IMG/VR virus record: IMGVR_UViG_3300030109_004684
DNA length: 64,000 nt
Strand: one strand, 5' to 3'
DNA from: an uncultured virus (IMG/VR IMGVR_UViG_3300030109_004684)
Lineage: Duplodnaviria; Heunggongvirae; Uroviricota; Caudoviricetes; Crassvirales
A program made the position numbers and the translations under genes. Shown piece after piece: positions 1,373 to 55,063 of the stretch. Below the pieces are notes generated by a model. The model did no database searches and was not told the origin of the DNA. It worked only from the letters and a program-made list of their open reading frames with translations. Position 1 is the first letter of the stretch, and each line of letters starts with the position of its first letter.

Positions 1373-1837
1373 TTACATAGTTACAGGTGAAACAAAATAT
1401 TTAAGTGAATTTTTAATATACATGCCACGTTTAGGTATACTTTTTAATTCTCTGCCTAGCAAATCATATATCTTATTATCTTGTAGCTGAGACTGTATTT
1501 CATTAACATGTGTAATTGTATTTACTAATTGCCAAGTGAAACCGTTGAATATAACATAGTAACACTCATTGCATGACCACTGCGGTGATATATCATAACA
1601 AACCTTTACAGTATCTAGCGGGTTAACTAAAAAGAAGTATGCAGTATCACCATTTGAAGAATAACACATACTGTTATCACAAACACCCCACATAAAGTTA
1701 GTACTATCTGAAGAACTGTTTACACCTATAACCGTAAGTGCTGAGCTTGTGCTTACACTAAAAGATAGAGAGTCGCATAAGGTTTGAGCATTAACATAGT
1801 TAAAGCATAGTAGAATTATAATTAGTAGTTTCTTCAT
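1373..1837 (-). CDS. Exported protein with signal peptide and T9SS-like C-terminal sorting domain
   Basis: N-terminus MKKLLIIILLCFNYVNAQ; C-terminus KIYDLLGRELKSIPKRGMYIKN (YDLLGR-type CTD). Confidence 0.7.
   Translation of the reverse strand: MKKLLIIILLCFNYVNAQTLCDSLSFSVSTSSALTVIGVNSSSDSTNFMWGVCDNSMCYSSNGDTAYFFLVNPLDTVKVCYDISPQWSCNECYYVIFNGFTWQLVNTITHVNEIQSQLQDNKIYDLLGRELKSIPKRGMYIKNSLKYFVSPVTM
1377..1403 (-). promoter_or_regulatory. Class II (middle/late) promoter motif
   Basis: The - strand reads TAAATA-ttttgtttcacct-GTAACTAT, upstream of the ATG at 1322. It is one of 5 copies with identical spacing. Confidence 0.7.
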
Positions 1838-1843
1838 ATACTT

Positions 1844-1870
1844 ATAGTCACTCGCCTACTATTATATTTA
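1844..1870 (-). promoter_or_regulatory. Class II promoter motif
   Basis: TAAATA-taatagtaggcga-GTGACTAT, ending 6 nt before the ATG at 1837. Confidence 0.7.
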
Positions 1871-1874
1871 AAAG

Positions 1875-1922
1875 TGTGACACTTGCCTGCTACTAGTTTC
1901 CTCTTAATAGGCTAATGTCACA
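1875..1922. repeat. Inverted repeat, probable protein-binding site (copy 1)
   Basis: TGTGACActtGCC-N22-GGCtaaTGTCACA; a second copy lies at 7431-7476. Confidence 0.8.
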
Positions 1923-1943
1923 AAAAAAAGTATTACAAATTTT

Positions 1944-2012
1944 GGGGTGTAGTGTTGCCCCCACTCCACTACCCCCTCCTCCCCCTGGAAATTTACTTTT
2001 GTTTACCAGGCC
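1944..2012. other. G/C-skewed island with hairpins at the strand-switch point
   Basis: Three C5 runs (1958-1962, 1972-1976, 1981-1985) in an otherwise AT-rich genome. GGGGT-GTAGTG (1944-1954) can pair with CACTAC-CCCC (1967-1976), and there is a CCTGG...CCAGG stem. Confidence 0.7.
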
Positions 2013-2109
2013 CCGTAGTTTTATCCCGTTTTACCTCTGCGTTTCCTTCCCATTACGTTACATAATCTCTACGCTGTCATATTTCTATTACATACTAGTT
2101 TTTATTTAT

Positions 2110-2139
2110 ATTATCCACTTCGCTCGTATTTACTATGTA
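2110..2139 (-). promoter_or_regulatory. Class I (early) promoter motif, leftward copy
   Basis: The - strand reads TACATAGTAAATACG-N7-TGGATAAT, a near match to the 8 + strand copies. Confidence 0.7.
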
Positions 2140-2172: not shown

Positions 2173-2202
2173 TACAAACTAAATACATATTGTTTGGATA
2201 AT
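2173..2202 (+). promoter_or_regulatory. Class I (early) promoter motif
   Basis: TACAAACTAAATACA-tattgtt-TGGATAAT. Confidence 0.8.
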
Positions 2203-2233
2203 ATTAATGAATTTAAACTAAAAACAAATAACT

Positions 2234-2347
2234 ATGAAGAATTTTAATCATTTCAAACTTTTCTCAATTACACTAAATGTAATATATGTTGTCACTCAAT
2301 TATCATTATTCACATTTGTAATTAACACAATTATGAAAACTTTTTAA
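2234..2347 (+). CDS. Small hydrophobic early peptide (37 aa)
   Basis: MKNFNHFKLFSITLNVIYVVTQLSLFTFVINTIMKTF directly follows a class I motif and an A-rich leader; below the ORF-track cutoff. Confidence 0.55.
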   Translation: MKNFNHFKLFSITLNVIYVVTQLSLFTFVINTIMKTF

Positions 2348-2418
2348 TTGTAAATGAAGAGAAGTGGAGGAATACTAGAGGTAGATTTTCTTCACATTAA
2401 CAAACAATATACTTTTAT

Positions 2419-2448
2419 TACAAAGTAAATACAACAAAAATGGATAAT
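2419..2448 (+). promoter_or_regulatory. Class I promoter motif
   Basis: TACAAAGTAAATACA-acaaaaa-TGGATAAT. Confidence 0.8.
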
Positions 2449-2462
2449 AATAATAAAAAAAT

Positions 2463-2705
2463 ATGAACAATAAAAATAATAAAAATAAATTAAAATTAAA
2501 TAATAATTCAATATTAAAATTAAATAATAATATATATATTCCTTTTCAACTTCATACTCTTCCAAAATATTTTGATGAAATAAATATAAATAATATTATA
2601 AAATATAAATCATTAATTTATATAAATATAATTGAATTAAAAAATAAAAAAACTATTTTAAATTTATTAAATAGTTCTAAATTAAATAAATATTCTTTAA
2701 ATTAA
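2463..2705 (+). CDS. Hypothetical early protein, extremely AT-rich (N/K/I/L-biased)
   Basis: The ORF sits between two class I motifs; low complexity. Confidence 0.45.
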   Translation: MNNKNNKNKLKLNNNSILKLNNNIYIPFQLHTLPKYFDEININNIIKYKSLIYINIIELKNKKTILNLLNSSKLNKYSLN

Positions 2706-2716
2706 AATAAACTATT

Positions 2717-2746
2717 TACAATGTAAATACAATAATATTGGATAAT
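2717..2746 (+). promoter_or_regulatory. Class I promoter motif
   Basis: TACAATGTAAATACA-ataatat-TGGATAAT. Confidence 0.8.
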
Positions 2747-2791
2747 ATAAACAAACAAACTAAATAAATTATTAACTAAAAAAATTAAATT

Positions 2792-3019
2792 ATGTCAAAC
2801 TTAAAATCAAAAAGATTTGTAATCAGAAAATCACTAATCGGTAAAAATTCAACAATTGAAGTAACATTCAAAAATGGTAATCAAGTTACTTACAATCACG
2901 ACAAAGTGTATGATTTACTAAAATCAAACTTATCAAAATTAAATTGTTTTGAAAAGTATGGAAGTTACACTTCAAGTACAAATATTCCAAAAGTTCTTAG
3001 AGATCAAGAATTAGTGTAA
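2792..3019 (+). CDS. Hypothetical early protein
   Basis: 75-aa ORF after a class I motif with an AT-rich leader. Confidence 0.8.
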   Translation: MSNLKSKRFVIRKSLIGKNSTIEVTFKNGNQVTYNHDKVYDLLKSNLSKLNCFEKYGSYTSSTNIPKVLRDQELV

Positions 3020-3120
3020 TATTAAAATTCCAGTTAGTTTCACTTGTTTCCTGGTAAATCAAAAATGAATGAGTAAATGTAGTAATGGTTTTTGTGAGTT
3101 CGATTCTCACACTACAACTA
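3020..3120 (+). ncRNA. tRNA-like mini-element (T-arm plus acceptor-like stem)
   Basis: GTGAG-TTCGATT-CTCAC (3094-3110) is followed by ACTACA (3111-3116), complementary to TGTAGT (3078-3083). No D or anticodon arm is recognisable. Confidence 0.5.
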
Positions 3121-3137
3121 ATATAAAATATAAAATT

Positions 3138-3368
3138 ATGACTAAAAATGAATTAAAAGAATTATGGTGGGGATTACCACATAAAGAAAAGAAAAAAGAA
3201 ATGAAATTAATAGTAATTTCTTTTGAGTACAAAATGGTAAAAGTGATAACTGATGTAGAAGGTTATTATCAGTCTTCATCACATTTTCCAAAAAATGATT
3301 TAACTGAGTTCGCACTCAACTTAAAAAATCATACAAGATTTAGTGATTACAATATAGTATGTATGTAA
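3138..3368 (+). CDS. Hypothetical early protein
   Basis: Track ORF 3069..3368; the likelier start is the ATG at 3138 (MTKNELKELWWG) after an A-rich leader and downstream of the tRNA-like element. Confidence 0.7.
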   Translation: MTKNELKELWWGLPHKEKKKEMKLIVISFEYKMVKVITDVEGYYQSSSHFPKNDLTEFALNLKNHTRFSDYNIVCM

Positions 3369-3398
3369 TACAAAGTAAATACAAACTAATTGGATAAT
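3369..3398 (+). promoter_or_regulatory. Class I promoter motif
   Basis: TACAAAGTAAATACA-aactaat-TGGATAAT. Confidence 0.8.
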
Positions 3399-3430
3399 AT
3401 AAACAAAAATATTAATTAAATAAATAAACT

Positions 3431-3616
3431 ATGTCAAAAAATAAAATAATAGAAGAAACAGTAGAAACTATAATAGATAATATAGAAGAAAAATTAGTAG
3501 ATTATATGTTTGAGTATGGTAATTATAGTGATTCAAATGATATATTCTATAAAGACAAAGAAGAATTATTCTCACAAGTAATAGAAGAAATAAATAACAG
3601 ATTAAAAAATAAATAA
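3431..3616 (+). CDS. Small acidic hypothetical protein
   Basis: 61-aa E/D-rich ORF following a class I motif. Confidence 0.75.
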   Translation: MSKNKIIEETVETIIDNIEEKLVDYMFEYGNYSDSNDIFYKDKEELFSQVIEEINNRLKNK

Positions 3617-3617
3617 T

Positions 3618-3863
3618 ATGTCAAGAAAAATTAACATAAACAAGTATGAAGGTAATACACATTATAGTGTATCAGTAACAGACAAATATGGTCAAGAACA
3701 TCATATTGGTTACTACAAACACCTTTATACTAACAAATTACAGGAAAAGGCGGAAAAAATATGGTCAAATGAAGTTAAACCCGAGGTAGATTTACTTAGT
3801 GAGGCGATATCTGACTGTATTAAAATAGATATTAACAATAATTTAACACCTATATTAGATTAA
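3618..3863 (+). CDS. Hypothetical protein
   Basis: Tightly packed ORF in the early operon. Confidence 0.75.
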   Translation: MSRKININKYEGNTHYSVSVTDKYGQEHHIGYYKHLYTNKLQEKAEKIWSNEVKPEVDLLSEAISDCIKIDINNNLTPILD

Positions 3864-3866
3864 ACT

Positions 3867-4190
3867 ATGACAAAACAAGATAAAAAGAATAAAATGGATG
3901 AATTTATCCATGTAGGTATGGTATCTTCTTACTTAATGTTGATAGAAGATAAAACTTATGGTGATGTACGAAAATTACAACAAGAAAAAGGAGTAAAATC
4001 TGTGTTCTTTTTGTCTCCGATGGACGTAGATACGGGTGATATACAAAAATGTGACTTAGAATCTATGATAGAACACTTTGTAGAGCGAGAAGATTATAAG
4101 AAATGTGCGAAAATAAAGTGGTTAATAGACAATAATAAGTGTGATGAAGATGGTTGGTTATTCTTAACTAACAGACTTAATACAAACTAA
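3867..4190 (+). CDS. Hypothetical protein with a UVR-like motif
   Basis: MIEHFVEREDYKKCAKIK resembles the UVR-type E-x-YE-x-CA motif. Confidence 0.65.
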   Translation: MTKQDKKNKMDEFIHVGMVSSYLMLIEDKTYGDVRKLQQEKGVKSVFFLSPMDVDTGDIQKCDLESMIEHFVEREDYKKCAKIKWLIDNNKCDEDGWLFLTNRLNTN

Positions 4191-4210
4191 ATACACGATA
4201 ATTGGATAAT
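4181..4210 (+). promoter_or_regulatory. Class I promoter motif
   Basis: TACAAACTAAATACA-cgataat-TGGATAAT. Confidence 0.8.
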
Positions 4211-4221
4211 ATAAATAAAAT

Positions 4222-4431
4222 ATGAAATGTAAATGTAATAAAATAATACCTCAAGGCAGAGTTAATCTTGGTTTTACAACTTGTGTTGACTGTTCTAAGA
4301 CCGAAAAATATGGTTGTGCACCACTAATCAACCACAAAACCGGTAATTCCATACAGATTATGTCAAGCAGTGATGCAAAGCGTATCGCTAAGTTGACTCA
4401 GCGTAGAGGTTATGGTACAATGTTAGGATAA
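4222..4431 (+). CDS. DksA/TraR-type C4 zinc-finger protein
   Basis: CKCNKIIPQGRVNLGFTTCVDC matches the C..C..IP..R......C..C pattern. Confidence 0.7.
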   Translation: MKCKCNKIIPQGRVNLGFTTCVDCSKTEKYGCAPLINHKTGNSIQIMSSSDAKRIAKLTQRRGYGTMLG

Positions 4432-4446
4432 AATAAATAAATTACA

Positions 4447-4623
4447 ATGAAATTATTTAAAAAAAAATTAAATCAAAACGAAAAACTATTAAAAAACATA
4501 GAAGAATATGACAAAAAAAAGAAAGCTAAACAGCAAAAATCCAAAATATTGGGACAAAAGCCAGTTAAAGGAAAAACCAATAAAAGAAAAGAAACTACTA
4601 TGTACGACACACCACGGGTGTAA
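4447..4623 (+). CDS. Small Lys-rich protein (58 aa)
   Basis: MKLFKKKLNQNEKLLKNIEEYDKKKKAK...TPRV, my translation; fills the gap between neighbouring genes. Confidence 0.6.
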   Translation: MKLFKKKLNQNEKLLKNIEEYDKKKKAKQQKSKILGQKPVKGKTNKRKETTMYDTPRV

Positions 4624-4648
4624 AGTATACGGAATATGGTATGAATAA

Positions 4649-4678
4649 TACAAACTAAATACATTACAAATGGATAAT
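4649..4678 (+). promoter_or_regulatory. Class I promoter motif
   Basis: TACAAACTAAATACA-ttacaaa-TGGATAAT. Confidence 0.8.
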
Positions 4679-4701
4679 AATAACAAATAAAATTAAATAA
4701 T

Positions 4702-5043
4702 ATGTCAGAAACAAAAGAACTGTTAGAAGCTACAGTAAAAGGCTTACAAGACAAAGTCAATCAATTAAATATAGACTTAAAAGCTAAACAACAAGAACTA
4801 CAAGATGTTAATAAACCAGAATTATCAAATGATACTTATGCTGAGCTCGAAGATATTATAGGCAATACTATCGGCGATTATCAGTTTGAGTGTGGTGAGT
4901 TTGATTATGAGTTTAACTTAGATTATGATAACAAGCTAGAACTCAGTGACTTACAATTTAATGATCACTACAACTTAGCAGAAGCAGTTATGAAAGCAAT
5001 TACTAACCATTTTAAAATAGCAGAAGATGAAACTAACGAGTAA
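4702..5043 (+). CDS. Coiled-coil/acidic hypothetical protein
   Basis: N-terminal heptads and an acidic C-terminal half. Confidence 0.8.
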   Translation: MSETKELLEATVKGLQDKVNQLNIDLKAKQQELQDVNKPELSNDTYAELEDIIGNTIGDYQFECGEFDYEFNLDYDNKLELSDLQFNDHYNLAEAVMKAITNHFKIAEDETNE

Positions 5044-5308
5044 AAAAGTTAAAGAATATATGACGTGGCGTACGGATGAAAATTTTACACATTGTCCTGA
5101 AGCTACAGCAGCCGCTTGCAACGATTTAGCAAATAAATTTAAAAATGAGTTTACAGCGCCTAAAATAAAAGCTGAAGACTTTATGAAGTTGTTATACTTC
5201 AACGAACCAATACCTGAGCTACATACACATAGCTATGGCTTTAACACAGCTACAGGTAGAGCAATTATTAAATCACTAAAAATGAAATATTATGAAAATA
5301 AAAAGTAA
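5027..5308 (+). CDS. Hypothetical protein
   Basis: Overlap-coupled ORF in the operon. Confidence 0.75.
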   Translation: MKLTSKKVKEYMTWRTDENFTHCPEATAAACNDLANKFKNEFTAPKIKAEDFMKLLYFNEPIPELHTHSYGFNTATGRAIIKSLKMKYYENKK

Positions 5309-5555
5309 TCAACCAATTCCTGATTGGTTCAATGGTAGAATCTATAAAGATGGTGCTACAGTTAGAAACAGATTTTCAGGAGAAGAATATGAACTAAATA
5401 ATGTAGAGTTAAGTATTTATGACTTTGTGATGGGCGCAACTATAGTAGTTGAAATGGGTATGTTTAATACACCTCAACACATACAAGACCTTAGAAAAGG
5501 TTTAAACTGGTTTAGACAATACAACGCTAAAGCTTATATGACTTTACTAGACTAA
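5292..5555 (+). CDS. Hypothetical protein
   Basis: Overlap-coupled ORF ending LNWFRQYNAKAYMTLLD. Confidence 0.8.
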   Translation: MKIKSNQPIPDWFNGRIYKDGATVRNRFSGEEYELNNVELSIYDFVMGATIVVEMGMFNTPQHIQDLRKGLNWFRQYNAKAYMTLLD

Positions 5556-5569
5556 AAAAAAATTAAATT

Positions 5570-5956
5570 ATGAGTACAAGAGCACAAGTAAGATTCGCAA
5601 CACGCGAAGATGGTGTATCGTTTAGCGAACACCCAGAAAAATTTCACGCACAATTTTATAAACATCACGATGGTTATCCCGAGGGTCTAGGCGTAGATCT
5701 AGCTAAAACACTATTAAATAGTGGTAGTTGGAACGGTGTATCGCTAGAAATAGATAGTTTAGATACCAGAAGATCTGATACAGAATATATGTATTATATA
5801 TGGCAAGCGCCATTAAAGACTACGTGGATAAGTATTTTCGAGCTAAATCCTTGGTCAGAAAAAGGTGACGAATGTATATTTGTAGGTGAACCACAAAAAC
5901 TATTAAACAAATACAAACTAAATACAAGCAATATGGATAATAATATAAACAATTAA
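5570..5956 (+). CDS. Conserved phage hypothetical protein (MSTRA...YxHxDGYP type)
   Basis: MSTRAQV and FYKHHDGYPEGLG motifs are typical of a widespread phage early protein family. Confidence 0.75.
   Translation: MSTRAQVRFATREDGVSFSEHPEKFHAQFYKHHDGYPEGLGVDLAKTLLNSGSWNGVSLEIDSLDTRRSDTEYMYYIWQAPLKTTWISIFELNPWSEKGDECIFVGEPQKLLNKYKLNTSNMDNNINN
5912..5941 (+). promoter_or_regulatory. Class I promoter motif upstream of the ligase
   Basis: TACAAACTAAATACA-agcaata-TGGATAAT. Confidence 0.8.
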
Positions 5957-5958
5957 AT

Positions 5959-6840
5959 ATGATGAGACACAAACCAATGCTAGCATACCCTGTTAGCGAA
6001 AAACCAATTGATTACAGTAAACCAGTATTTATGCAACCAAAACTAGATGGTGTTAGATGTGTAATACAAAGTGAATACGTTGAATTTTATAGACCAGGAA
6101 GCAGTCAACTTATTAAAGCTGACGCTGTAAAAGCTTATTCACGTACAGGTAAAGAGTGGAAAAATATAGATCATATATTAAAGGAATTAGTACCATTTTT
6201 TGCAAAATATCCTAATGTTATACTTGATGGCGAACTGTATAATCACAGTCTAAAAGACGATTTTGAAAAGATCATATCATTGGTCAGAAAAACAAAACCA
6301 ACTGATAAGGATCGTCTAGAAGCTGCCCAGTACACAGAATTTCATTGCTATGATATAATTGATGAAACTAAAACGTTTAAAGAGCGTAATAAATTTATTA
6401 CACAAAACGTACCACGCAACCATTGTATTAAACACGTTAAAACTTACAATGTTGTTACTGAATCACTAGCTAAAGTTGTACATCAACAAAATCTAGACAA
6501 TGGCTACGAAGGCTCTATATTACGTACTAACGATACATATCAATGTAAACGTTCACATAGCTTACGTAAATTCAAAGACTTTCACGATACTGAGGCTACT
6601 ATTACAGGTTGGGTTGAAGGCAAAGGTAAACGTAAAGGTACTATCGGTAAGTTTCTAGCTATTGATGCTGAAGGTATAACGTTCGGTATGCCTGTTATGG
6701 ATAAGTTTAAGTATTTACAAAACAATTTCAAAAAAATGCAAGGCTATGTAGGTAAAACTGCTACCTTTACATACTTCGAACGAACAAAAGCAAATAGCTA
6801 CAGACACCCATTATTTAAATGTATTAGAGATTATGAATAG
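5959..6840 (+). CDS. ATP-dependent DNA ligase
   Basis: Motif I KLDGVR, motif III LDGELY, motif IV EGSIL, motif V KFK, and a C-terminal OB fold with RHP. Confidence 0.93.
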   Translation: MMRHKPMLAYPVSEKPIDYSKPVFMQPKLDGVRCVIQSEYVEFYRPGSSQLIKADAVKAYSRTGKEWKNIDHILKELVPFFAKYPNVILDGELYNHSLKDDFEKIISLVRKTKPTDKDRLEAAQYTEFHCYDIIDETKTFKERNKFITQNVPRNHCIKHVKTYNVVTESLAKVVHQQNLDNGYEGSILRTNDTYQCKRSHSLRKFKDFHDTEATITGWVEGKGKRKGTIGKFLAIDAEGITFGMPVMDKFKYLQNNFKKMQGYVGKTATFTYFERTKANSYRHPLFKCIRDYE

Positions 6841-6940
6841 AAACCAACAACAAATGTATAAGGACATTAGCGACTTAACTAAAGCCTTAACTAAACTAGT
6901 AAAAGTAATAGAAAAACTAGCAAAACAACAATATGACTAG
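6833..6940 (+). CDS. Small helical protein (35 aa)
   Basis: MNRNQQQMYKDISDLTKALTKLVKVIEKLAKQQYD overlaps both neighbouring genes. Confidence 0.5.
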   Translation: MNRNQQQMYKDISDLTKALTKLVKVIEKLAKQQYD

Positions 6941-7301
6941 AATAAATGTAGGCATACCGCCAGCTGAATTAACAGATAAACACTTGTTAGCTGAACACAG
7001 AGAAATAAAACGTATACCAAATTGTATTGCTAAAGGTAAGTACAATATGGAAGGAATACCTGACAAGTTTAAATTAGGCACAGGTCACGTTAAGTTTTTT
7101 TATAATAAATTAGAATATTTATTTACAAGATATGTTAAGTTATATCTTGAATGTAAAGACAGAGGATTTAACGTGCAAAATTATTCCAAAGCATGGGATA
7201 ATTTACCAGAAGAATTATTAAACCATTATGAACCAACAGATGCCGATAGGCAAATTATAAGACAAAGAATAAATGACAGACAAACTAAAGCAAAGAATTA
7301 A
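6933..7301 (+). CDS. denV: Pyrimidine-dimer DNA glycosylase (T4 endonuclease V family)
   Basis: MTRIN...LTDKHLLAEHREIKRI and FKLGTGHVKFFYNKL closely match T4 DenV motifs. Confidence 0.93.
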   Translation: MTRINVGIPPAELTDKHLLAEHREIKRIPNCIAKGKYNMEGIPDKFKLGTGHVKFFYNKLEYLFTRYVKLYLECKDRGFNVQNYSKAWDNLPEELLNHYEPTDADRQIIRQRINDRQTKAKN

Positions 7302-7461
7302 AGAATTTAATGATATTAAATATCCTAATGATAATGAGACAAGAATTGTATTTACAACATTAAAACCAAGTAATGGTTATACATGGAAACAAGAAGCTGA
7401 TGATATGATTGAAGAGTATAACCGAGGGACTGTGACAACAGCCCCTAAATATAAAGAGTAA
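7273..7461 (+). CDS. Hypothetical protein
   Basis: 62-aa coupled ORF. Confidence 0.6.
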   Translation: MTDKLKQRIKEFNDIKYPNDNETRIVFTTLKPSNGYTWKQEADDMIEEYNRGTVTTAPKYKE

Positions 7462-7476
7462 CAGGCTAATGTCACA
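7431..7476. repeat. Inverted repeat (copy 2) overlapping the start codon at 7469
   Basis: TGTGACAacaGCC-N20-GGCtaATGTCACA. Confidence 0.8.
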
Positions 7477-8089
7477 CGAAAGAAATTTAAAATATTTAAA
7501 TAATAACCGCATCGTATACCGTAGACACCCGGTAACAGATAAACCAGACATAGATAATGAAGTGTATATGTTTTATCTAAACGGTACATATGAGTGCTAT
7601 GAGCTATTTAGATCTTCAGCAAAGATAACAACATACAGATCTTTAAAGTGGCATCTATTAGTATTATGGTATTTAAACCCTCAATTTGACGATGCTGATA
7701 TGATGGACTTAGCAAGATATATAACTAATAAGCAAAATGGTTTTGTAGCTTTTAATATAAATAGATGGGACCTTGCTAAAATAGTATACGAAGTTAGTGT
7801 ATGTGATTTAGATGAGCCACCAAAGAATAAGCTACGTAAAGTTATATTTAAACCGTTTACACTTATAAGCAAAGAAGAAAAGTTACGTATTGTAGGTGAA
7901 TTAATAGGTAGAAGTAAACTTATTACAAAAGGTGATATATATGACTGTATGTTAGAAATAAATAACAACAAAGAAAAAATAACAATAACTAAATTATCTA
8001 AGTTATTGAAATGTGCAACTAGAACAATACATAGAAATATGTGTTTAGAATTAAAACGAGAAAAAGAACTTTTAAATAAACAACTATGA
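7469..8089 (+). CDS. DNA-binding protein with C-terminal HTH (possible PriCT-1-like middle region)
   Basis: ITITKLSKLLKCATRTIHRNM is HTH-like. Confidence 0.7.
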   Translation: MSHERNLKYLNNNRIVYRRHPVTDKPDIDNEVYMFYLNGTYECYELFRSSAKITTYRSLKWHLLVLWYLNPQFDDADMMDLARYITNKQNGFVAFNINRWDLAKIVYEVSVCDLDEPPKNKLRKVIFKPFTLISKEEKLRIVGELIGRSKLITKGDIYDCMLEINNNKEKITITKLSKLLKCATRTIHRNMCLELKREKELLNKQL

Positions 8090-8841
8090 AATACTATAAT
8101 GTAGAAAATTATGTAAGATATAAACAAGAAGTGTTAACGGCTGTTAAAAGACTGCCTAAAATACCCGTAACAGAGTATAGTGATGAACAACTTAATATTA
8201 AATTTCTACCTCTTGTAGAAAATTTAGCAAGAAAGTTTAGCACTACACAACAAGCATCAGGTGTTATGTCTATTATGGATATGATACAATGCGGTAATAT
8301 AGGTTTAACACAATCAATAAAAAAATTAGACAGAGATAAACTAAAAGAATCAGATGATATAGATAAAACATTAAAATCTTTCTTTTCAAAAAGAATTAAA
8401 GGCACTATACGAAGACAAATAGATTATAATAGAGGTAATATAAGAATACCAGAACACAAGATGAACGAGATACGTAAAAACTTTGGTAAAGACAAACGAA
8501 TGGTTGAAATGTTTTTTAATAGTGTATTTTTAAGTATTGATGCTAACCCATCAGATGAAAATATGGTTTATCAAATACCTGACCAATCAGAACCTTACAA
8601 TATAGATATGATGAATATATATTTAACTTCTTTATTACGACAACATTTAACAGTGAAAGAGTTTGATGTATTAAGATTAAGCTACGGATTAAACTGTGAC
8701 AAACACTCTGCTAGTGAAATAGCTAAACATTTAAATATTGAGGGTAGCAGTGCTTATGTGCGTGTTTCACAATTAAAAAAGCAAGCTGTAGATAAACTAA
8801 TAGAAAACGTAGATCACTCGCAAGTGCTTGATTTTCTATAG
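8086..8841 (+). CDS. Sigma70-family RNA polymerase sigma factor
   Basis: Region 2 (LPLVENLARKF...DMIQCGNIGL...RIKGTIRRQID, IRIPEH) and region 4 (VLRLSYGL...SASEIAKHL...VRVSQLKKQAVDKL). Confidence 0.88.
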   Translation: MKYYNVENYVRYKQEVLTAVKRLPKIPVTEYSDEQLNIKFLPLVENLARKFSTTQQASGVMSIMDMIQCGNIGLTQSIKKLDRDKLKESDDIDKTLKSFFSKRIKGTIRRQIDYNRGNIRIPEHKMNEIRKNFGKDKRMVEMFFNSVFLSIDANPSDENMVYQIPDQSEPYNIDMMNIYLTSLLRQHLTVKEFDVLRLSYGLNCDKHSASEIAKHLNIEGSSAYVRVSQLKKQAVDKLIENVDHSQVLDFL

Positions 8842-8851
8842 GTTATATAGT

Positions 8852-8878
8852 TAAATATGAATAATAATGTGTGATTAT
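8852..8878 (+). promoter_or_regulatory. Class II promoter motif upstream of the recombination/replication genes
   Basis: TAAATA-tgaataataatgt-GTGATTAT immediately after the sigma gene. Confidence 0.7.
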
Positions 8879-8902
8879 AATAATATACCAAATACCAATA
8901 AT

Positions 8903-9457
8903 ATGAAAGAATTAAACCAAAAACTAGCTAAAATTCAAACTGAATTAAAAGTTAAAAAATCAAGTTACAACAGCTTTGGTAAATACAATTTTCGTAAAGC
9001 TGAAGATATCCTAGAGGCTACAAAGCCTTTCTTACTGAAACATGGCGTTACAGTTACTATTAACGAAGAGTTTATAATGACTGACCCTGTTCCAACAATA
9101 AAATCAATAGCAACAATAACAGACGGTAAAGACAGTATAAATGCTACTGCTATAGTCGGTGTAGACTTAAATCAAAAAGGTATGCAAACAGCACAACAGT
9201 TTGGTGCAGCATCATCTTATGGTAAAAAGTATGCGCTAGGTAATTTATTTTTAATTGACGACACGGCAGATGCAGACGCAACTAATAACCACGCTAATTC
9301 TAGCGCTGTAAATAAAATAAAACAAGCTGCAAAGCCAGCTATTACTACAGAGCAAATGAATAAAGCAAAAGATTATATAAAATCAGGCGGTGATATAAAA
9401 GCTATTGAGTCTAAGTACAAATTAACACAACAACAAATTAAACAATTAACATTATGA
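8903..9457 (+). CDS. ERF-family ssDNA annealing protein
   Basis: KSSYNSFGKYNFRKAEDILEA and QQFGAASSYGKKYALGNLFLIDD are ERF signatures; likelier start 8903. Confidence 0.9.
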   Translation: MKELNQKLAKIQTELKVKKSSYNSFGKYNFRKAEDILEATKPFLLKHGVTVTINEEFIMTDPVPTIKSIATITDGKDSINATAIVGVDLNQKGMQTAQQFGAASSYGKKYALGNLFLIDDTADADATNNHANSSAVNKIKQAAKPAITTEQMNKAKDYIKSGGDIKAIESKYKLTQQQIKQLTL

Positions 9458-9834
9458 AAACAATTAAAATAACACTTTTATGTTTATTTATATCTGTTTT
9501 ATCTTACAGTCAAGATACTATTTGGGTAATGGTTAACGGTACTAATATGCATTACTTTAGTAAAAACATGAAGATAATAAAAAGTACAGATCACTATAAC
9601 GACTATGATTATAAAGATTATAAAATAACAATAAAAAAAAATCAGATACTAGTTCTTGACTTATATGATAGCTGTGTATATTGTAAACGTAAATACATAA
9701 ACTATAGAGATTTATTAATAGAAGGTAGAGTGTTTGACGAAGTAATAAAAAAAAGCTACGCAAGTTCTGACAATACTTATTATATAAACGGTAGTAAAAT
9801 AAAATCAATAACAGTACTAAAACCAAATGAATAA
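9454..9834 (+). CDS. Exported hypothetical protein
   Basis: Signal peptide MKTIKITLLCLFISVLSYSQ. Confidence 0.7.
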   Translation: MKTIKITLLCLFISVLSYSQDTIWVMVNGTNMHYFSKNMKIIKSTDHYNDYDYKDYKITIKKNQILVLDLYDSCVYCKRKYINYRDLLIEGRVFDEVIKKSYASSDNTYYINGSKIKSITVLKPNE

Positions 9835-10558
9835 AAAACAAATATTAAAAAAGCTTGAACAAGATGAACATTATTATGGTGACTTTGGTAATCAATATTT
9901 ATCTAACTCACATGTTAGTAGACTATTAAAAGATCCATTAAATGTTTTCAAGCCTAGTAAGCCATCGCCAGCGTTTTTAGTTGGTGGGTATTTCCATACG
10001 TGTATATTAGAACCAAACAAGATAGATAAATATAAAGTTGTTAAGTCTAGTACTAGAAATACAAAAGAATATAAAGATGTAAGTGGTGGTGAGCTATGTC
10101 TACTACAACACGAAGTAGACACAATTGAATTAATGAGAGAAAAAGTAATGAACAATGATATATGTAAAGATCTTATACAATTAGGCAATGTTGAATATGA
10201 GGTGCCAGGTATTACAGATTTATTTAGTAATAAATGGAAAGGTAAAGCAGATATTGTTAATCACGATGAAAAGTTAATCATTGATTTAAAAACAACTGCA
10301 GACATTGATAAGTTTCAATGGTCAGCGTCTAAGTATAACTATGATTCACAGGCTTATATTTATAGTAAGCTGTTCGGATATGAGATGTTATTTATAGTTA
10401 TCGATAAAGCTACACATAAAATAGGTATGTTTGACTGTTCACCAGAATTTTATGCCCGTGGCGAAGACAAGGTGCGTAGAGCAAGTGAAGCTTATGACTT
10501 GTTTTACAAGACCAAGGATTTTGATCCTAAACAGTATTTCATAAGCAAAACCTTATAA
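9827..10558 (+). CDS. PD-(D/E)XK exonuclease, RecE/exonuclease VIII-like
   Basis: LSNSHVS, GGYFHTCILEP, KGKADIV, IIDLKTT and YDSQAYIY motifs. Confidence 0.85.
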   Translation: MNKKQILKKLEQDEHYYGDFGNQYLSNSHVSRLLKDPLNVFKPSKPSPAFLVGGYFHTCILEPNKIDKYKVVKSSTRNTKEYKDVSGGELCLLQHEVDTIELMREKVMNNDICKDLIQLGNVEYEVPGITDLFSNKWKGKADIVNHDEKLIIDLKTTADIDKFQWSASKYNYDSQAYIYSKLFGYEMLFIVIDKATHKIGMFDCSPEFYARGEDKVRRASEAYDLFYKTKDFDPKQYFISKTL

Positions 10559-10567
10559 ACCTAAATT

Positions 10568-10732
10568 ATGCCAAATAGACAAAAAACATGTAGCGTAACT
10601 GGTGTTAAAACTTCTATACATAACTTCTATCAGAATCAAAATCATTTGAAAGCTGTAGATAATTTAAGAAGAAATACTGGTGCTACAAAAGAACAAATAA
10701 CAAGAATGTTTAACCAAATAAATAATTATTAA
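10568..10732 (+). CDS. Small hypothetical protein (54 aa)
   Basis: MPNRQKTCSVTGVKTSIHNFY...; fills the gap up to the SSB start. Confidence 0.6.
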   Translation: MPNRQKTCSVTGVKTSIHNFYQNQNHLKAVDNLRRNTGATKEQITRMFNQINNY

Positions 10733-11041
10733 ATGGCAAGTATTATTAAAACAAGTATTAACCTTAACAATATACCTAAAGATAAAATATTTGAAGGTAA
10801 AAAAGGTAAATACTTACCAATCACAATTACAATAAATGATGAAACAGATCAGTTTGGTAATCAAGGACCTGTAGTTGTAGAACAAACTAAGGAAGAAAGA
10901 GATGCTAAGGCAGCTAAAACTTATCTTGGTAATGTAAAAGTAGTTTGGACTAATGGTCAAAATGTTGACACAGCTCCAAGAGATAACAACTCAGCACCAG
11001 CAACTGCTCCTGCTGCTGCTGAACAAGACTTACCGTTTTAA
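10733..11041 (+). CDS. Single-stranded DNA-binding protein (putative)
   Basis: Beta-rich body, flexible linker and acidic tip EQDLPF; lies between the nuclease and the primase-helicase. Confidence 0.75.
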   Translation: MASIIKTSINLNNIPKDKIFEGKKGKYLPITITINDETDQFGNQGPVVVEQTKEERDAKAAKTYLGNVKVVWTNGQNVDTAPRDNNSAPATAPAAAEQDLPF

Positions 11042-12750
11042 TGAATAAAGAAGAGATCAATGGATTTGTTATTGACCAGTTCAATCAACATGGCCTGAAA
11101 GAAGGTGCCTCACAGGGGGTTTGTCCTTTGTGTTCGCATACCAGGAAACCTAAAAATCAAAAAGCACAGTGTGCTAGTTATGATTGGGAACGTGGTCTCG
11201 GTACATGTCACAACTGTAACAAAACATTTCAATTACATACTTATCAACGTAAAGGTGTTAGTGAAAGAGTTTATGTAAGACCAGAAACTCCAGAACAATT
11301 TAATGAGATAAGTACAAATGTTGAAACATGGTTTGGTACAAGAGGTATATCAAAACAAACACTCAAAGACCTTCGTGTAAATGAAGGTCTTGAGTTTATG
11401 CCTCAAACTGGTAAAAAAGAAAATACAATACAATTTAACTATTATATAGGTGATCAACTTATTAATATTAAATATCGTGATGGTAGAAAAAACTTTAAGC
11501 TTTATAAAGGCGCTGAAAAAGTATTTTATAATATTGATTCAATAGTAGGGTATGACACTTGCGTTATAACTGAAGGTGAAATGGATGTGTTAGCTTTACA
11601 CGAAGCCGGTATACCAAATGTTATTTCAGTGCCAAATGGTGCCACATTAAATAATAATAACTTAGATTATTTAGATAATTGTATTGATTATTTTGATGAC
11701 AAGACTAGAATTATATTAGCTGTTGATGCTGATGAACCCGGTCAAATGTTACAACGAGAGTTGGTTAGACGTCTTGGAGCAGAAGTATGTTATCTTATAG
11801 ACTTTAACGGTAATAAAGATGCTAACGACTTTTTATTAGAGCACGGAGCTGAAGCATTGCGTAGTGCTATACATAATTCAAGACCAGTGCCACTTGAAAA
11901 TGTATCAACCTTAAAAGACGTAGAAGATGAACTTAGAGACTTTGTTAAAAATGGATTTAAACCTGGTTTCCAAATCGGACTTCAAAACTTTGATAAAATA
12001 TTTAGTACATACACTGGTCAGTTTATTACTGTTACTGGTATCCCTAGTTCTGGTAAGTCTGATTTTGTCGATCAAATGGTTGTCGGTTATAATAATTTAT
12101 ATGGTTGGAAAACTGCGTACGCAAGTCCAGAAAACCAACCGGTATATTTACACGCTCATAAACTAATGCGTAAAACATGGCAAGACATGCCTTCACCAGG
12201 TGATATCGGAGGAGGTAAATGGAAAGAAGTAGCAGACCACGTAAACGATAATTACTTCTTTATTGACATGGACAAATACAGTTTAGATTCTGTATTACGT
12301 AAAGGTGCTGAGCTTGTGAAACGTAAAGGTATTAAATGTTTAGTTATTGATCCGTTTAATAAGATCAGAGACACTAACGCTGCGTCAGATGATGTAAACC
12401 GTTATACAATGGATTACTTAGCTAAGATCGAAACTTTTTGTAAAAAATATGATGTGTTAACTTTTATAGTTGCTCACCCAACTAAAATGTACAAGGGTCA
12501 AGATGGTAAAATAGAAGAACCTACAATGTATAATATTAAAGGTGGTGGTGAATGGTACGATGCTAGTTACCACGGCTTGTTAGTACATAGAGACTATGAT
12601 GCAAGAACTACAAAAGTAAAAGTACTTAAAGTTAAGTTTCAAAACTTAGGTGAAAATGGTGCTGAATCACATTTTACTTGGGAACCAAGGTCTGGTAGTT
12701 TTATACCTCATGAAACAGTAGATGAAAACGAACCAATGCCTTGGGAATAA
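11041..12750 (+). CDS. Bifunctional primase-helicase (T7 gp4/Twinkle-like)
   Basis: Zn finger CPLC...CHNC, TOPRIM motifs ITEGEMD, DADEPG and KDAND, Walker A GIPSSGKS, LVIDP, VAHP. Confidence 0.93.
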   Translation: MNKEEINGFVIDQFNQHGLKEGASQGVCPLCSHTRKPKNQKAQCASYDWERGLGTCHNCNKTFQLHTYQRKGVSERVYVRPETPEQFNEISTNVETWFGTRGISKQTLKDLRVNEGLEFMPQTGKKENTIQFNYYIGDQLINIKYRDGRKNFKLYKGAEKVFYNIDSIVGYDTCVITEGEMDVLALHEAGIPNVISVPNGATLNNNNLDYLDNCIDYFDDKTRIILAVDADEPGQMLQRELVRRLGAEVCYLIDFNGNKDANDFLLEHGAEALRSAIHNSRPVPLENVSTLKDVEDELRDFVKNGFKPGFQIGLQNFDKIFSTYTGQFITVTGIPSSGKSDFVDQMVVGYNNLYGWKTAYASPENQPVYLHAHKLMRKTWQDMPSPGDIGGGKWKEVADHVNDNYFFIDMDKYSLDSVLRKGAELVKRKGIKCLVIDPFNKIRDTNAASDDVNRYTMDYLAKIETFCKKYDVLTFIVAHPTKMYKGQDGKIEEPTMYNIKGGGEWYDASYHGLLVHRDYDARTTKVKVLKVKFQNLGENGAESHFTWEPRSGSFIPHETVDENEPMPWE

Positions 12751-12780
12751 TACAAACTAAATACAAACCAATTGGATAAT
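12751..12780 (+). promoter_or_regulatory. Class I promoter motif upstream of the nucleotide-metabolism cluster
   Basis: TACAAACTAAATACA-aaccaat-TGGATAAT. Confidence 0.8.
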
Positions 12781-12784
12781 ATAT

Positions 12785-13048
12785 ATGTATAAAAACTGGC
12801 ACAGAGCACCAAGTAAAAAACCACCGCAAAGGTCTTGGTTAGACGAAGAAATAAAAATAATAAGCTGGTGTATGAATAAAAATATAAAAGTATCTATAAG
12901 TCCTGATTGGAAAGACGAACTATTAAGATGGAAAATTGAAATAAATATAAACGGCAAAGTACACACAGATCCAAATAGATATGATGACAATGTTGTTTAT
13001 AATAAGTTTAACGAATATTATAAATACTACTATGACAAATATAATTAA
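12785..13048 (+). CDS. Hypothetical protein
   Basis: 87-aa ORF starting 4 nt after a class I motif. Confidence 0.7.
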   Translation: MYKNWHRAPSKKPPQRSWLDEEIKIISWCMNKNIKVSISPDWKDELLRWKIEININGKVHTDPNRYDDNVVYNKFNEYYKYYYDKYN

Positions 13049-13161
13049 AGAAATTAATGATAATCAAATTAAAACAACAGAAAAAGGTGTTGATAAAATA
13101 TATACAAAAATAAAATACAATAAATACTACAATTATTATATTAAATACAAGGAAGAATATT

Positions 13162-13800
13162 ATGCTTAAATTTAGAAATGCAAATGAAGCTTATGAGTAC
13201 ATGCACGACCGTATTATACAAGACGGCGTAGACTTTGCTGGTACAAAAGCTTTATTTAATGTAGGGTTTTATATAACAGATCCTATGGATAACAAAATAA
13301 TAAACAGAGAACGTAACTGGAAACAAGATTATGCTGAGGCTGAATGGCAATGGTATTTATCTGGCGATCCTAATATAAGTAAGCTAGGAGATATATACGG
13401 TAAAATTCCAGAGATATGGAAACGTATGGCTGACGACGAGGGTAATGTAAACTCTAACTATGGTTATCAATGGCAAAGAAGTGATCAACTTAGAAAAGTT
13501 ATAGCTGACTTAAAAGAAAACCCTGAGACTAGACAAGCTGCAATATCTATTTATGATGCTAAAGAAAAAGCAGCTTATCAACACGACACGCCTTGCACTT
13601 ATGCAGTACAATTTACAATATTACATGGTAGACTTGATATGTGTGTAACGATGCGTAGCAATGATCTTTGGTATGGTTTTTGTAATGATCAGTATTGTTT
13701 TTCTATGTTACAAGGTTTAGTCGCATATGAATTAAATGTTGAACCTGGTGTGTATTATCACTTTGCGCATAATATGCACCTATATAATGATAAAATATGA
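13162..13800 (+). CDS. Thymidylate-synthase-family enzyme, probably a dCMP hydroxymethylase/methylase
   Basis: Catalytic PC (DTPCTYAVQF) and MRSNDLWYGFCND, with Asp where ThyA has the dUMP-specifying Asn; resembles T4 gp42 MRSNDVVFGFRND. Confidence 0.8.
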   Translation: MLKFRNANEAYEYMHDRIIQDGVDFAGTKALFNVGFYITDPMDNKIINRERNWKQDYAEAEWQWYLSGDPNISKLGDIYGKIPEIWKRMADDEGNVNSNYGYQWQRSDQLRKVIADLKENPETRQAAISIYDAKEKAAYQHDTPCTYAVQFTILHGRLDMCVTMRSNDLWYGFCNDQYCFSMLQGLVAYELNVEPGVYYHFAHNMHLYNDKI

Positions 13801-14606
13801 CTTATTGTATTTACCATATACCGGGTGTAAAAATAGGTGTAACAAACAACGTTAAGTACCGTGTTGAACAACAACAAGGTTATTATGAAGACGAGTATGA
13901 AATAATTGAAATGTCAGAAGATATAAACTATATATCTAAAAGAGAGCTCGAGCTACAAAGACAATATGGTTATAGCGTTGATGAAGAACTTTATAGTAAA
14001 TTAAAATGTAATCAAATGAAAATAAACGTAACAGAAATGACTACGACATTCCCTTGTCCGGTCAATAAATTAAAAGGCAGACTACTAGATAATGTAGGCA
14101 TGTCATGGGAAACTTCTTTTGGCCATTGTATAATAACAGAAAAATCTATAGAGTGGATAATGAATAATATATCATCATCTAAATATAGCAACGAAAGATG
14201 TTATGTATACAATAGGGCTTTTGCTAGATGGTTTGATAACAATAGTGTTCACAAAACTAGAACTGGCGGTATTATGTCTGATCACAGAATCACAAACTGT
14301 ACACCAAAATGTGAAATCAGTAGATTTGATAAAATAAGATTATGGGCTAATGAAAGAGGTTTGTATGACAAAGGTGATGCTAAAACACAAACATTAAAAC
14401 TTATGGAAGAAGCTGGTGAAATATGTAGGGCTGTGATTAAAAACGATAAACCAGAAGTTATAGATGGTATTGGTGATTGTGTAGTTGTATTAACTAATCT
14501 AGCTGAGCTAGCAGGTACTACTATTGAAAACTGTATTGATGCAGCGTACAACGAGATAAAAGATAGAACAGGTAAAATGAGTAATGGAACATTTAAAAAA
14601 GATTAA
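13797..14606 (+). CDS. MazG-like NTP pyrophosphohydrolase with an N-terminal GIY-YIG-like domain
   Basis: C-terminal KLMEEAGE...IDGIGDCVVVL; N-terminal YCIYHIPGVKIGVTNNVKYRVEQQ. Confidence 0.8.
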   Translation: MTYCIYHIPGVKIGVTNNVKYRVEQQQGYYEDEYEIIEMSEDINYISKRELELQRQYGYSVDEELYSKLKCNQMKINVTEMTTTFPCPVNKLKGRLLDNVGMSWETSFGHCIITEKSIEWIMNNISSSKYSNERCYVYNRAFARWFDNNSVHKTRTGGIMSDHRITNCTPKCEISRFDKIRLWANERGLYDKGDAKTQTLKLMEEAGEICRAVIKNDKPEVIDGIGDCVVVLTNLAELAGTTIENCIDAAYNEIKDRTGKMSNGTFKKD

Positions 14607-52843: not shown

Positions 52844-55063
52844 TTATTTTTTAATTAATTTTGACGTACTGCCTTTATTTGTATACCTGCCTATATTTAA
52901 ATTTATTGGTTGTTTTTCTACTTTAGCGTTTGGCGCATATAAATTTCTATTGCAAGCCATAATAGCAAGACCAGAACTTATAGATGCATCAAACTTTGTT
53001 CTTTTATTTATATCAAACTTTGCCCAATCATTTAATGTTCTATTAAAATACATATTACCCCAGTTTCCATTACCTATATCACCTACATATTGTTGTATAT
53101 ACATTTCAATAGCAGCAGCGTGTGCTTGTTTTATATCTTCACTTGAATTTGGTATACCACCTATTTCTTTTTCAGTTGTTGATAGTTTATTCCATATTTT
53201 ATCAGGCCTATTCATACTAAAACCTCTGTAACCTCTACGTCTTATATAATAAAGTAATCTAGGTTTGTTGTTTTCTGCTAGTATTGGCATCCCGTAAAAT
53301 ATTAAAGCCATTAACATATCTTCAAAAAATATTTCTGCGGTTTGTGGTCTAGCTATATATTCTAAAAAAAATTGATTAGGAGGAGCGTCTTCCATACTGA
53401 ACTTAGTTAAACCGTGTAATGATCCATTAGAGCCTCTACCATCTACTGTTCCTGATATATCATAACTATCACAACCAAAAGCGCCCATATGTTCATTACC
53501 AGGATATTTTATACCGTTTTTAATTATAATACGGTTTTGTAGGTTTTGAGGTGGTACCCAACTAATTTTAAATCTACCTTTTGGGTCTGGATAAAATATA
53601 ACTTGTGTGTCTTTGATACCGTTAACCCATTGAAAATTACCTGTAGATATAGTAGATGATGTTCCTCTACCTTCGTTGTAATCTATTTGATCATATATTC
53701 TTACTAAATTAAATATACTGTTTCTTGTTTCATCTCTAAACGCATGTTCTTCTGTTCTTGGGAACTGCCTGTAAAACTCATTTAAAGCATCATGATCATC
53801 TTTAAGCCCAGCAGCTTCATTATCCCAATGCTCTATAATACCATAATCTATTAGTTCACCGTCTGGTCCGAGTACATCATTATTTGGATTATCAAAGACT
53901 GGATATCCATGTTCGTCAATAAATCCCTCGTAGTTCCATTCCATTGGGATAAAGAGAGAATAAAGACCAGACTTTGTCTGTCCATTACGATTTCGTCTTG
54001 TAACATCCGATGCATTGTATAATTTTTTAAAGTTATCACCTCCTTTTTCTAAAGCGTTAGACGTTGAACCCATCATGCACTTACCTACTATTCTACTACC
54101 TAGTCTTAGACATGTTTTAGTTACTCGCCAGTTGTTTAATATATTATCAGGTCTTTCCCACTTACCGCTTTCATCGTGTACAAGTAAATTAAGTTTTTCA
54201 CCATCATAACTATTGTCTCCTGTATTTTTCCAGTCAATAGTTGTATCTAATCCTTGTATTTCTTCTAGACCATCTGTTGCTGTCATTTTTTTTCTTGTAA
54301 ACTTACTAGCTGGTACCCTATATGCTAGTTCTGATTTTGGCCTGTCCATACCATCTTGGATAGGTTTAAAGAAAAATGGATAATTAATACTAATAGGTAC
54401 AACTTTGTCTGTAAACATTTTTTTAGCATCATTACCAGTTTTAGATAATATTCCATATCTACTATCACTTGCGAGAGTGGCTAAATTAACTGTTTCAGCT
54501 GAAGACATGAAACTAAAACCACTACGCCTATTTTTTAAATAACACATACCATAACATCTGTTATCTGCTTTGCAAGCTTCCCAGAATATATAAAATAATC
54601 TGTTTGCTTCTCTAAAATCTGGAGCACCTACGTCTATTTTACTCCATTGCAAGTACATGTAATGTGTACCTGTTATATAAGTTGGCTTATTATTATTCAT
54701 AAACCAAAAACCTTCTTCTCTTCTTTTGAATTCTTGGTCTATATAATCAAACCAATACTCTTTGTTTTCTTCTGGATAATCTCTCCAGTCAAATATATTT
54801 TTTAATCTACCTAATTCTTTTGGGTATTCTATTTTTTCCCATTTGTTTTTTCCATTGGTATACACGTGCACTGGCAGCAGCGGCAAAGCAATGCGCAGAT
54901 TTTGTATCTCAAGTATTTCACCAATTCTACCGCTTTTCGATATAACGATAACGTCATGTTCTTTATTGTATCCATATTTCCATTTTTTAGATTTGTTAAG
55001 ACGACTTATAGTCGTTTTTTTAATCGGTTCTATTATTTTAACTAAACTTTGCTCGTACATCAT
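52844..55063 (-). CDS. terL: Terminase large subunit
   Basis: Walker A-like KNRRSGFS, Walker B LLVHDE, motif C GSTSN and nuclease FGCDSYD. Confidence 0.9.
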   Translation of the reverse strand: MMYEQSLVKIIEPIKKTTISRLNKSKKWKYGYNKEHDVIVISKSGRIGEILEIQNLRIALPLLPVHVYTNGKNKWEKIEYPKELGRLKNIFDWRDYPEENKEYWFDYIDQEFKRREEGFWFMNNNKPTYITGTHYMYLQWSKIDVGAPDFREANRLFYIFWEACKADNRCYGMCYLKNRRSGFSFMSSAETVNLATLASDSRYGILSKTGNDAKKMFTDKVVPISINYPFFFKPIQDGMDRPKSELAYRVPASKFTRKKMTATDGLEEIQGLDTTIDWKNTGDNSYDGEKLNLLVHDESGKWERPDNILNNWRVTKTCLRLGSRIVGKCMMGSTSNALEKGGDNFKKLYNASDVTRRNRNGQTKSGLYSLFIPMEWNYEGFIDEHGYPVFDNPNNDVLGPDGELIDYGIIEHWDNEAAGLKDDHDALNEFYRQFPRTEEHAFRDETRNSIFNLVRIYDQIDYNEGRGTSSTISTGNFQWVNGIKDTQVIFYPDPKGRFKISWVPPQNLQNRIIIKNGIKYPGNEHMGAFGCDSYDISGTVDGRGSNGSLHGLTKFSMEDAPPNQFFLEYIARPQTAEIFFEDMLMALIFYGMPILAENNKPRLLYYIRRRGYRGFSMNRPDKIWNKLSTTEKEIGGIPNSSEDIKQAHAAAIEMYIQQYVGDIGNGNWGNMYFNRTLNDWAKFDINKRTKFDASISSGLAIMACNRNLYAPNAKVEKQPINLNIGRYTNKGSTSKLIKK

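Follow-up and report, generated by a model that had tools for sequence, protein, structure and literature searches.

The window analyzed in this work is a stretch of 64,000 nucleotides that forms bases 1–64,000 of one single contig of 65,819 bases. The genome is that of a podophage with two diverging arms. On the rightward arm, which extends from about 2.2 to 17.4 kb, genes were found for ligase, a sigma factor, Erf, exonuclease, primase-helicase, thymidylate synthase and ribonucleotide reductase; the leftward arm encodes terminase, portal, virion genes and GroEL/ES. The site under study (1923..2139) is located at the divergence of the two arms, as a previous sequence-only reading had placed it, and contigs from two runs of one study, which is possibly the source, cross it without differences. 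Its features are listed in Table 1. An exact terminal repeat was not found in the contig, and bases 639–1376 are 90% identical to the contig end at 65,082–65,819. These two copies are alleles of a repetitive Lys/Met-rich gene that encodes 753 aa in the end copy. We hence read the contig as a circular assembly of mixed strains, in which the 90% end repeat is probably a strain mosaic.

Table 1. Features at the arm divergence and related features elsewhere in the window
Feature	Position	Strand	Remark
154-aa ORF	1373..1837	-	first gene downstream of the reverse promoter; signal-peptide-like start
Late-type promoter-like motif	1844..1871	-	directly ahead of the first left-arm gene; another at 1377-1404
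Polar palindrome, 48 bp	1875..1922		separate, movable element
Box A	1931..1962	+	family-wide conserved block, from column profile and pattern searches
G-tract, 28 nt (C-tract on +)	1958..1985	-	length-constrained spacer from box A to box B
Box B, A-run	1989..1991	+	+38 to +40 from 1951
Box C, GC block	2006..2014	+	+55 to +63 from 1951
10-codon ORF	2021..2053	-	longest ATG ORF in 1923-2108 minus
Reverse class I promoter-like motif	2105..2139, core 2109-2131	-	directed across boxes C, B and A toward the left arm
First three forward class I promoter-like motifs of the early arm	2173..2747 (2173, 2419, 2717)	+	
Second palindrome copy	7431..7476		covers the start codon of the gene for the 206-aa HTH protein
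206-aa protein, C-terminal HTH	7469..8089	+	candidate binder of the palindrome
Terminase large subunit	52844..55063	-	protein comparison ties the phage to Elemovirus, Panino, Pachyviridae and Pervagoviridae

The terminase matches only 87 phage records, with identities of 64% to MW202828, 46% to Elemovirus, 41% to Panino, 38% to Cellulophaga Pachyviridae and Pervagoviridae (32–38%) and 32% to Gundel_1. Portal identities to relatives range from 26 to 49%, and both GroES and GroEL are encoded; these comparisons with Pachyviridae, Pervagoviridae and Elemovirus concern single genes rather than whole-proteome clustering. All named hosts of the related phages are Flavobacteriaceae, from which a flavobacterial host may be assumed for the window phage as well. 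A single-subunit RNA polymerase was not found in the phage, which encodes a sigma factor instead. Furthermore, the 42 ORFs scanned contained no DNA polymerase, with some smaller ORFs lying outside the scan, although primase-helicase, ligase and ribonucleotide reductase are encoded on the plus strand at 2200–17350. On the minus strand, at 39348–45131, a 1,927-aa virion protein carries a crAssvirus muzzle C-terminal domain (E 1.2e-8). A tRNA scan of the window returned none. Amid the early genes, at about 3078–3118 on the plus strand, lies a tRNA-like minihelix with an acceptor-like stem and a T-arm with TTCGA loop, lacking D and anticodon arms. Of 27 relatives whose sequence was long enough, 21 have a similar hairpin among their early genes, as judged by a loose test without shuffle control, and by eye it is also seen in Gundel and Panino. 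The minihelix is possibly an RNA processing site.

Family-wide comparison revealed a three-box DNA element at the divergence, whose boxes hold a nearly fixed spacing throughout a large family of marine phages. Altogether, 194 family loci were gathered via an early protein (20), via the HTH protein (12 of 22, which reached the site) and via sequence patterns, and merging of near-identical loci at 88% left 139 distinct ones. Most loci stem from patterns that required both box A and box C, which inflates the conservation and C-richness of both; because of this bias, 30 distinct protein-anchored loci were counted apart. Pattern matches judged false (7 of 80 and 9 of 80) were dropped before counting, as were loci too short for a given test. 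Box A is the unique best profile match in the genome, scoring 64.0 versus 16.9 for the next one with a profile that includes the window locus itself. Counted from position 1951, 111 of the 139 loci have their first AAA at +37 to +40, a spacing that is partly imposed by the patterns and also seen in the protein-anchored loci. RGSCC follows at +57 to +60 in 102 of 139 loci. The same box layout is present in the 30 protein-anchored loci, and the distance from box A to box B is retained where the C-tract is lost, e.g., in loci L004, L139 and L153. What is conserved is sequence and distance, not base pairing.

The element is single-copy in the genome, non-coding and directly upstream of the earliest promoters. 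With a loose pattern placed to the right of the predicted cut (see below), 73 of 80 and 71 of 80 matches were judged real by the upstream half of box A, for which the pattern had not searched. Outside the family loci, the box A profile picks the arm divergence of MW202828 (34.1) and, weakly, that of elemoA, where it ranks second in 40 kb; it does not pick the arm divergences of Panino, phi38:1 and phi18:3. A search of GTDB genomes with the box A pattern was blank, and among cultured phages the region had only chance matches by blastn. No description of the box element was found in the literature searched, most subscription papers being outside the reach of that search. A plus-strand ORF of 110 aa at 1915–2247 was considered as a gene and rejected, as it is not conserved; it is the longest of 65, with a median of about 10 codons. 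Conserved boxes at a fixed distance with a free spacer point to proteins that read double-stranded DNA, and we infer that packaging proteins recognize the boxes in this form. The element is a real, family-wide cis element, most likely a signal of an ordinary type that belongs to a new phage family.

The spacer between boxes A and B is usually G4-prone yet dispensable, and free in sequence. The sequence-only reading had described this area as the most G/C-skewed tract, which holds for stretches of 30, 50 and 100 nt in the window; at 190 nt, however, the skew only ties with that at 59,048. Its G4Hunter score of −2.32 is likewise the strongest that the window offers, followed by −1.16. The G-tract contains only three runs of at least three G and is thus not a canonical four-run G4. 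Across the family, G4Hunter scores reach at least 1.5 in 97 of 135 loci and stay below 1.2 in 21; for the protein-anchored loci, the corresponding counts are 18 and 6 of 30. A canonical four-run G4 is found in 37 of 135 loci.

From their position ahead of early genes, the class I motifs are presumed to be promoters. Eight of the nine in the window lie on the plus strand, so that the single reverse class I motif that had been noticed from the letters is indeed the only one; its score of 37.3 equals the median of 258 forward copies (37.2). It did not arise by chance. Where it recurs, it always lies at +66 to +154 inside box A, and control stretches contained it in 0 of 136 and 0 of 71 cases. It is strong in 16 of 131 distinct loci and weak in 6, whereas about four fifths are without it, and it beats its own shuffles at p ≤ 0.05 in 30 of 132 loci. 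The reverse motif is therefore real and position-specific but optional; in a minority of the family, it likely serves as an accessory promoter. For 15 of the 16 strong loci, the first leftward ORF begins 211–490 nt downstream of the motif and no terminator intervenes; in the window, the distance to the 154-aa gene is 267 nt. As no terminator was found, the simplest product of a leftward promoter would be a long leader that reads through into the first left-arm gene, not a discrete RNA. The 154-aa ORF itself is missing from strains in two runs, where 1413 is joined to 1870, and hence was probably inserted as an accessory gene at the start of the late arm.

Around the boxes, 98 of 137 loci carry a late-type motif no more than 200 nt from box A, and in 120 of 131 a class I motif first appears within 500 nt. 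This position between late and early promoter-like motifs, together with the fixed spacing, which is consistent with protein binding, could indicate a transcription control block. Boxes A–C would then be a binding array for a regulator or a barrier, through which late-promoter activity is set and the early promoters are insulated; genome ends and replication would not involve them. However, the other late-type motifs of the genome are without boxes, and a control function would leave the corresponding genome ends of two relatives, discussed below, unexplained. We therefore regard it as an unlikely function of the element. Further to the right, at about 2355–2375 on the plus strand, a conserved purine-rich motif precedes the second early promoter; it comes after the relocated palindrome in loci L003, L010 and L025. 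Loci L002, L004–L006, L008 and L020 contain at least two paralogues of a small early gene (2792–3019 in the window), each behind its own class I motif.

The proposal that the leftward promoter yields a structured RNA of about 190 nt ending at the palindrome rested on elements that do exist in the window: the CCTGG/CCAGG pair, the hairpin, the A8 run (1922–1929) and the palindrome are all where they had been described. As described, the longest ATG-initiated ORF on the minus strand of the region has 10 codons; the place of its ATG (2053) differs in two contigs of a related strain, and it is probably not a gene. An end of the transcript at the palindrome, in contrast, found no support. Hairpin and U8 are separated by 14 nt, and a scan for intrinsic terminators was negative both for the region and for all 16 loci with a strong reverse promoter. 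Only 2 of 139 loci share the CCUGG/CCAGG stem and 1 of 139 the hairpin, both being private to the window genome. Minus-strand 1860–2115 folds at a z of −2.85, but without most of the palindrome (1926–2020) z is only −1.29, and the family mean over the first 70 loci is −0.49, with 9 of 70 below −2. Among 111 ungapped loci, the top covarying column pairs are not Watson–Crick partners in a helix. Among the 16 promoter loci, a 4-bp G-C stem at box A does outscore 99 of 100 column shuffles, but its two sides are blocks that are conserved in sequence anyway. Rfam gave no credible match, the one match with an E of 0.86 lying outside the interval. A discrete structured ncRNA is thus extremely unlikely, even though the region is non-coding and folds well in the window.

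Could leftward transcription instead prime replication? Over the G-tract, it might form a persistent R-loop or an RNA–DNA G4 that acts as a primer. R-loop-primed origins feature a promoter upstream of a G-rich non-template tract, according to the part of the source available (PMC5333043), and this order is shared by ColE1 RNA II, the T4 origins, mitochondrial CSB2 and the site described here. The leftward RNA would be G-rich, and the full-strength reverse motif recurs nowhere but at this site; all 16 strong-motif loci have G4Hunter scores of at least 1.44. If the palindrome were a promoter as well, 31 of 67 loci would have some left-facing element to the right of box C. In the known R-loop origins, however, the transcript is obligatory, whereas here promoter and RNA fold are not conserved and the G-runs only incompletely so. 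The reverse motif is missing from most loci, G-runs are weak in 6 of the 30 protein-anchored ones, the would-be primer has a structure conservation index of 0.22, and the phage encodes its own primase. Where the G-spacer is lost, the box spacing is kept. Nor does GC skew provide independent support. Cumulative skew turns near the divergence and a second time where the arms converge (17,573); at the antipode, about 34.2 kb, the skew is still negative. Given that its other turn is at the convergence and none occurs at the antipode, the skew tracks the coding strand and is silent on replication forks, so that the check suggested with the original proposal did not speak for forks starting at the site. 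As the leftward motif and the G-rich tract are optional, an RNA-primed replication origin is unlikely, and its R-loop/G4 version very much so.

The palindrome next to box A behaves as an element of its own. It exists in exactly two copies in the genome, with a span of 46–48 bp. In 52 of 77 loci it adjoins box A on its left side, and in 12 of the other 25 it is shifted by 150–700 bp to the right, early side. Copies that adjoin box A are oriented left in 52 cases, both ways in 41 and right in 2; for the shifted copies, the counts are 16, 8 and 1. At the HTH gene, the orientation is right in 16 of 21 copies, with 5 uncalled. There, 21 of 21 relatives carry the right arm of the palindrome at the start of the gene, including those that use TTG as start codon. 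The palindrome is likely a protein-binding site or a promoter-operator, and the copy at the HTH gene together with its twin at the divergence likely represents an autoregulated promoter-operator. Possibly, it also serves as an initiator site.

The protein encoded at the second copy matches HTH_11 in 21 of 21 members of its family, with scores below the curated cut-off. Neither tblastn against cultured phages nor sequence and Foldseek searches against the PDB gave a clear match for the 206-aa protein, blanks that do not exclude a family. A model of its N terminus weakly resembles five primase helix-bundle or Rep proteins, with Z-scores of 3.6–4.6 that are within the noise range of the tool: pRN1 (Z 4.6, rmsd 3.2, 81 aligned), a PriSLX chain (Z 4.2), NrS-1 (Z 4.0), ColE2-P9 Rep (3vw4; Z 4.0, rmsd 6.1, 65 aligned) and RepB' (Z 3.6). 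An N-terminal primase-type helix bundle is hence a weak lead to an initiator. The domain order would be similar to that of ColE2-type Rep, with a helix bundle and an HTH, although the structural match is at noise level and the 206-aa protein appears to offer little room for a catalytic primase domain. One might thus speculate on a protein-initiated origin, in which the 206-aa protein binds the palindrome and loads the phage primase-helicase nearby, boxes A–C are part of the origin and the copy at the HTH gene is autoregulatory. The presence of exactly two palindromes, one of them over this gene start in 21 of 21 relatives, is in agreement with such a role, as are the primase-helicase on the early arm and the lack of a DNA polymerase among the ORFs scanned. 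But the palindrome shifts independently of boxes A–C, which therefore need a role of their own, and the skew has no inflection at the antipode. Taken with the noise-level matches, this leaves an origin of the protein-initiated type rather improbable. Palindrome and HTH gene form a separate, testable protein–site pair, and our analysis gives no support for a new kind of replication origin.

For boxes A–C, we lean toward a signal for terminase cutting or packaging with which a short direct terminal repeat would begin, judged from position. The element sits between the late promoter-like motif and the first early promoter-like motifs, and two distant cultured relatives have their predicted or assembled genome ends at the corresponding spot, which makes this the best supported reading. 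Gundel_1, a Tenacibaculum phage of the Pachyviridae with a terminase identity of 32%, has a 322-bp repeat between a leftward gene block and early small genes; this repeat is a PhageTerm prediction, as given in the part of the source available (PMC8776804). Panino was assembled by Canu from Nanopore reads of virion DNA, according to the excerpt at hand (PMC11590407). Its 77-kb linear record starts just before the early region and ends about 240 bp to the right of a similar-looking C-rich block at the divergence; by eye, no repeat was seen at the record ends. The packaging or terminus site, which had been named as the alternative to an origin, thus came out ahead through these two distant phages only, and for the window phage itself it is a prediction.

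In this packaging model, terminase would recognize boxes A–C on the concatemer and cut near 1951–1958, which would yield the early end of the virion chromosome and the start of the short terminal repeat. A repeat of about 200–350 bp would include the G-tract and the leftward motif, duplicated as in T7, and the duplication would place the early promoters at the chromosome end that enters first. Transcription from the leftward motif would cross the boxes and reach the first left-arm gene, with a long leader as its product; in the left copy of the repeat, it would leave the DNA at the chromosome end. The leftward motif would not be needed for the function of the box element.

The Gundel_1 repeat shares several traits with the site. 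Terminase and portal are of the same families, the repeat is just upstream of early small genes at a gene divergence, and by eye it opens with AAAT-N10-AGT, with a C-run following some 55 bp further in. On the other hand, its arms are laid out differently, with structural genes on the early strand, it lacks a long C-tract at the repeat start and the sequence match is not significant. The box A profile ranks the Gundel repeat start only 8,270–11,642 of 123,506, so that sequence homology to the Gundel end is not shown. As the profile misses this repeat start as well as the divergences of Panino, phi38:1 and phi18:3, the link to the ends of relatives is positional. The likeness in AAAT-N10-AGT was rejected as evidence, since the pattern occurs five times in 61.8 of the 78.8 kb and is not significant by profile. 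A looser pattern, built after viewing Gundel, hits four divergences (Gundel, Panino, phi18:3, MW202828) but also eight other places, and was likewise set aside.

Contig boundaries and record midpoints were also considered as signs of a terminus. No accumulation of contig starts was seen at the predicted cut: only 2 of 71 fall within 20 nt, at different places, and none of 73 IMG/VR contigs starts there. Among the latter, 33 of 73 end within 1 kb on the early side versus 1 on the late side in a hand count, and for metagenome contigs ending within about 500 nt the numbers are 29 versus 8 of 71. This early-side excess was rejected as a terminus sign, as the ends share no position, and is ascribed to variability of the early region. 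In favor of a terminal repeat, 93.7% of the long-read marine phage genomes in a set preselected for terminal repeats were inferred to have exact ones, as reported in the available part of that study (PMC7111524), and short-read assemblies collapse such repeats (PMC7111524, PMC10438801; both in part). Assemblers may also place repeats mid-contig, as stated in the portion seen of the latter source (PMC10438801). Two elemoA records of 60,073 bp do have their midpoint 25 and 115 bp from the element. In seven records of other lengths, however, the offset varies from −105 to +516, and an eighth has another rotation. The varying offsets imply that records are anchored at their start, and the midpoint argument was dropped; the Calle_1 midpoint, also in its divergence gap, was left uncounted for the same reason.

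Known viral ends offer two analogies. The T7 A0 promoter faces left. It is listed together with A1–A3, and a paused polymerase at the concatemer junction starts T7 packaging, as described in the section of the source available (PMC3276506). Like the left end of T7 and T3, the predicted end here has tandem strong early promoters just inside, plus one extra promoter. In contrast to T7 and T3, the window phage has two diverging arms and a sigma factor, no single-subunit RNA polymerase having been found, and the leftward promoter is present in only a minority of its family. In herpesvirus pac1, a T-rich stretch is flanked by G-rich runs and cleavage takes place at a fixed distance; the site is G4-capable in vitro, a need for the G4 is not shown and a packaging link is proposed only, according to the parts of the sources available (PMC13595911, PMC13386867). 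Here, an A/T-rich stretch between G-tract and box C lies at a fixed distance from box A, resembling pac1/pac2; this is an analogy of layout, and G4 potential is optional at our site. We may thus speculate on a phage pac1-like signal, where terminase would cut at a fixed distance from the G4-prone tract and a transcription-opened R-loop or G4 would trigger cutting or repeat duplication. Transcription would come leftward from the reverse class I promoter or, in other lineages, from the relocated polar palindrome. We consider this special form quite improbable.

If the packaging reading is true, boxes A–C would be a cis-acting end signal that allows the ends of widespread uncultured marine phages to be predicted at the base level. 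Chromosome ends of this marine phage group, which are invisible to short-read assembly, would thereby become predictable, and a short DNA pattern finds the predicted end signals with 73 of 80 and 71 of 80 matches judged real. The optional leftward promoter and G-tract, in turn, provide natural variants with which one may ask if transcription or G4 aids phage packaging.
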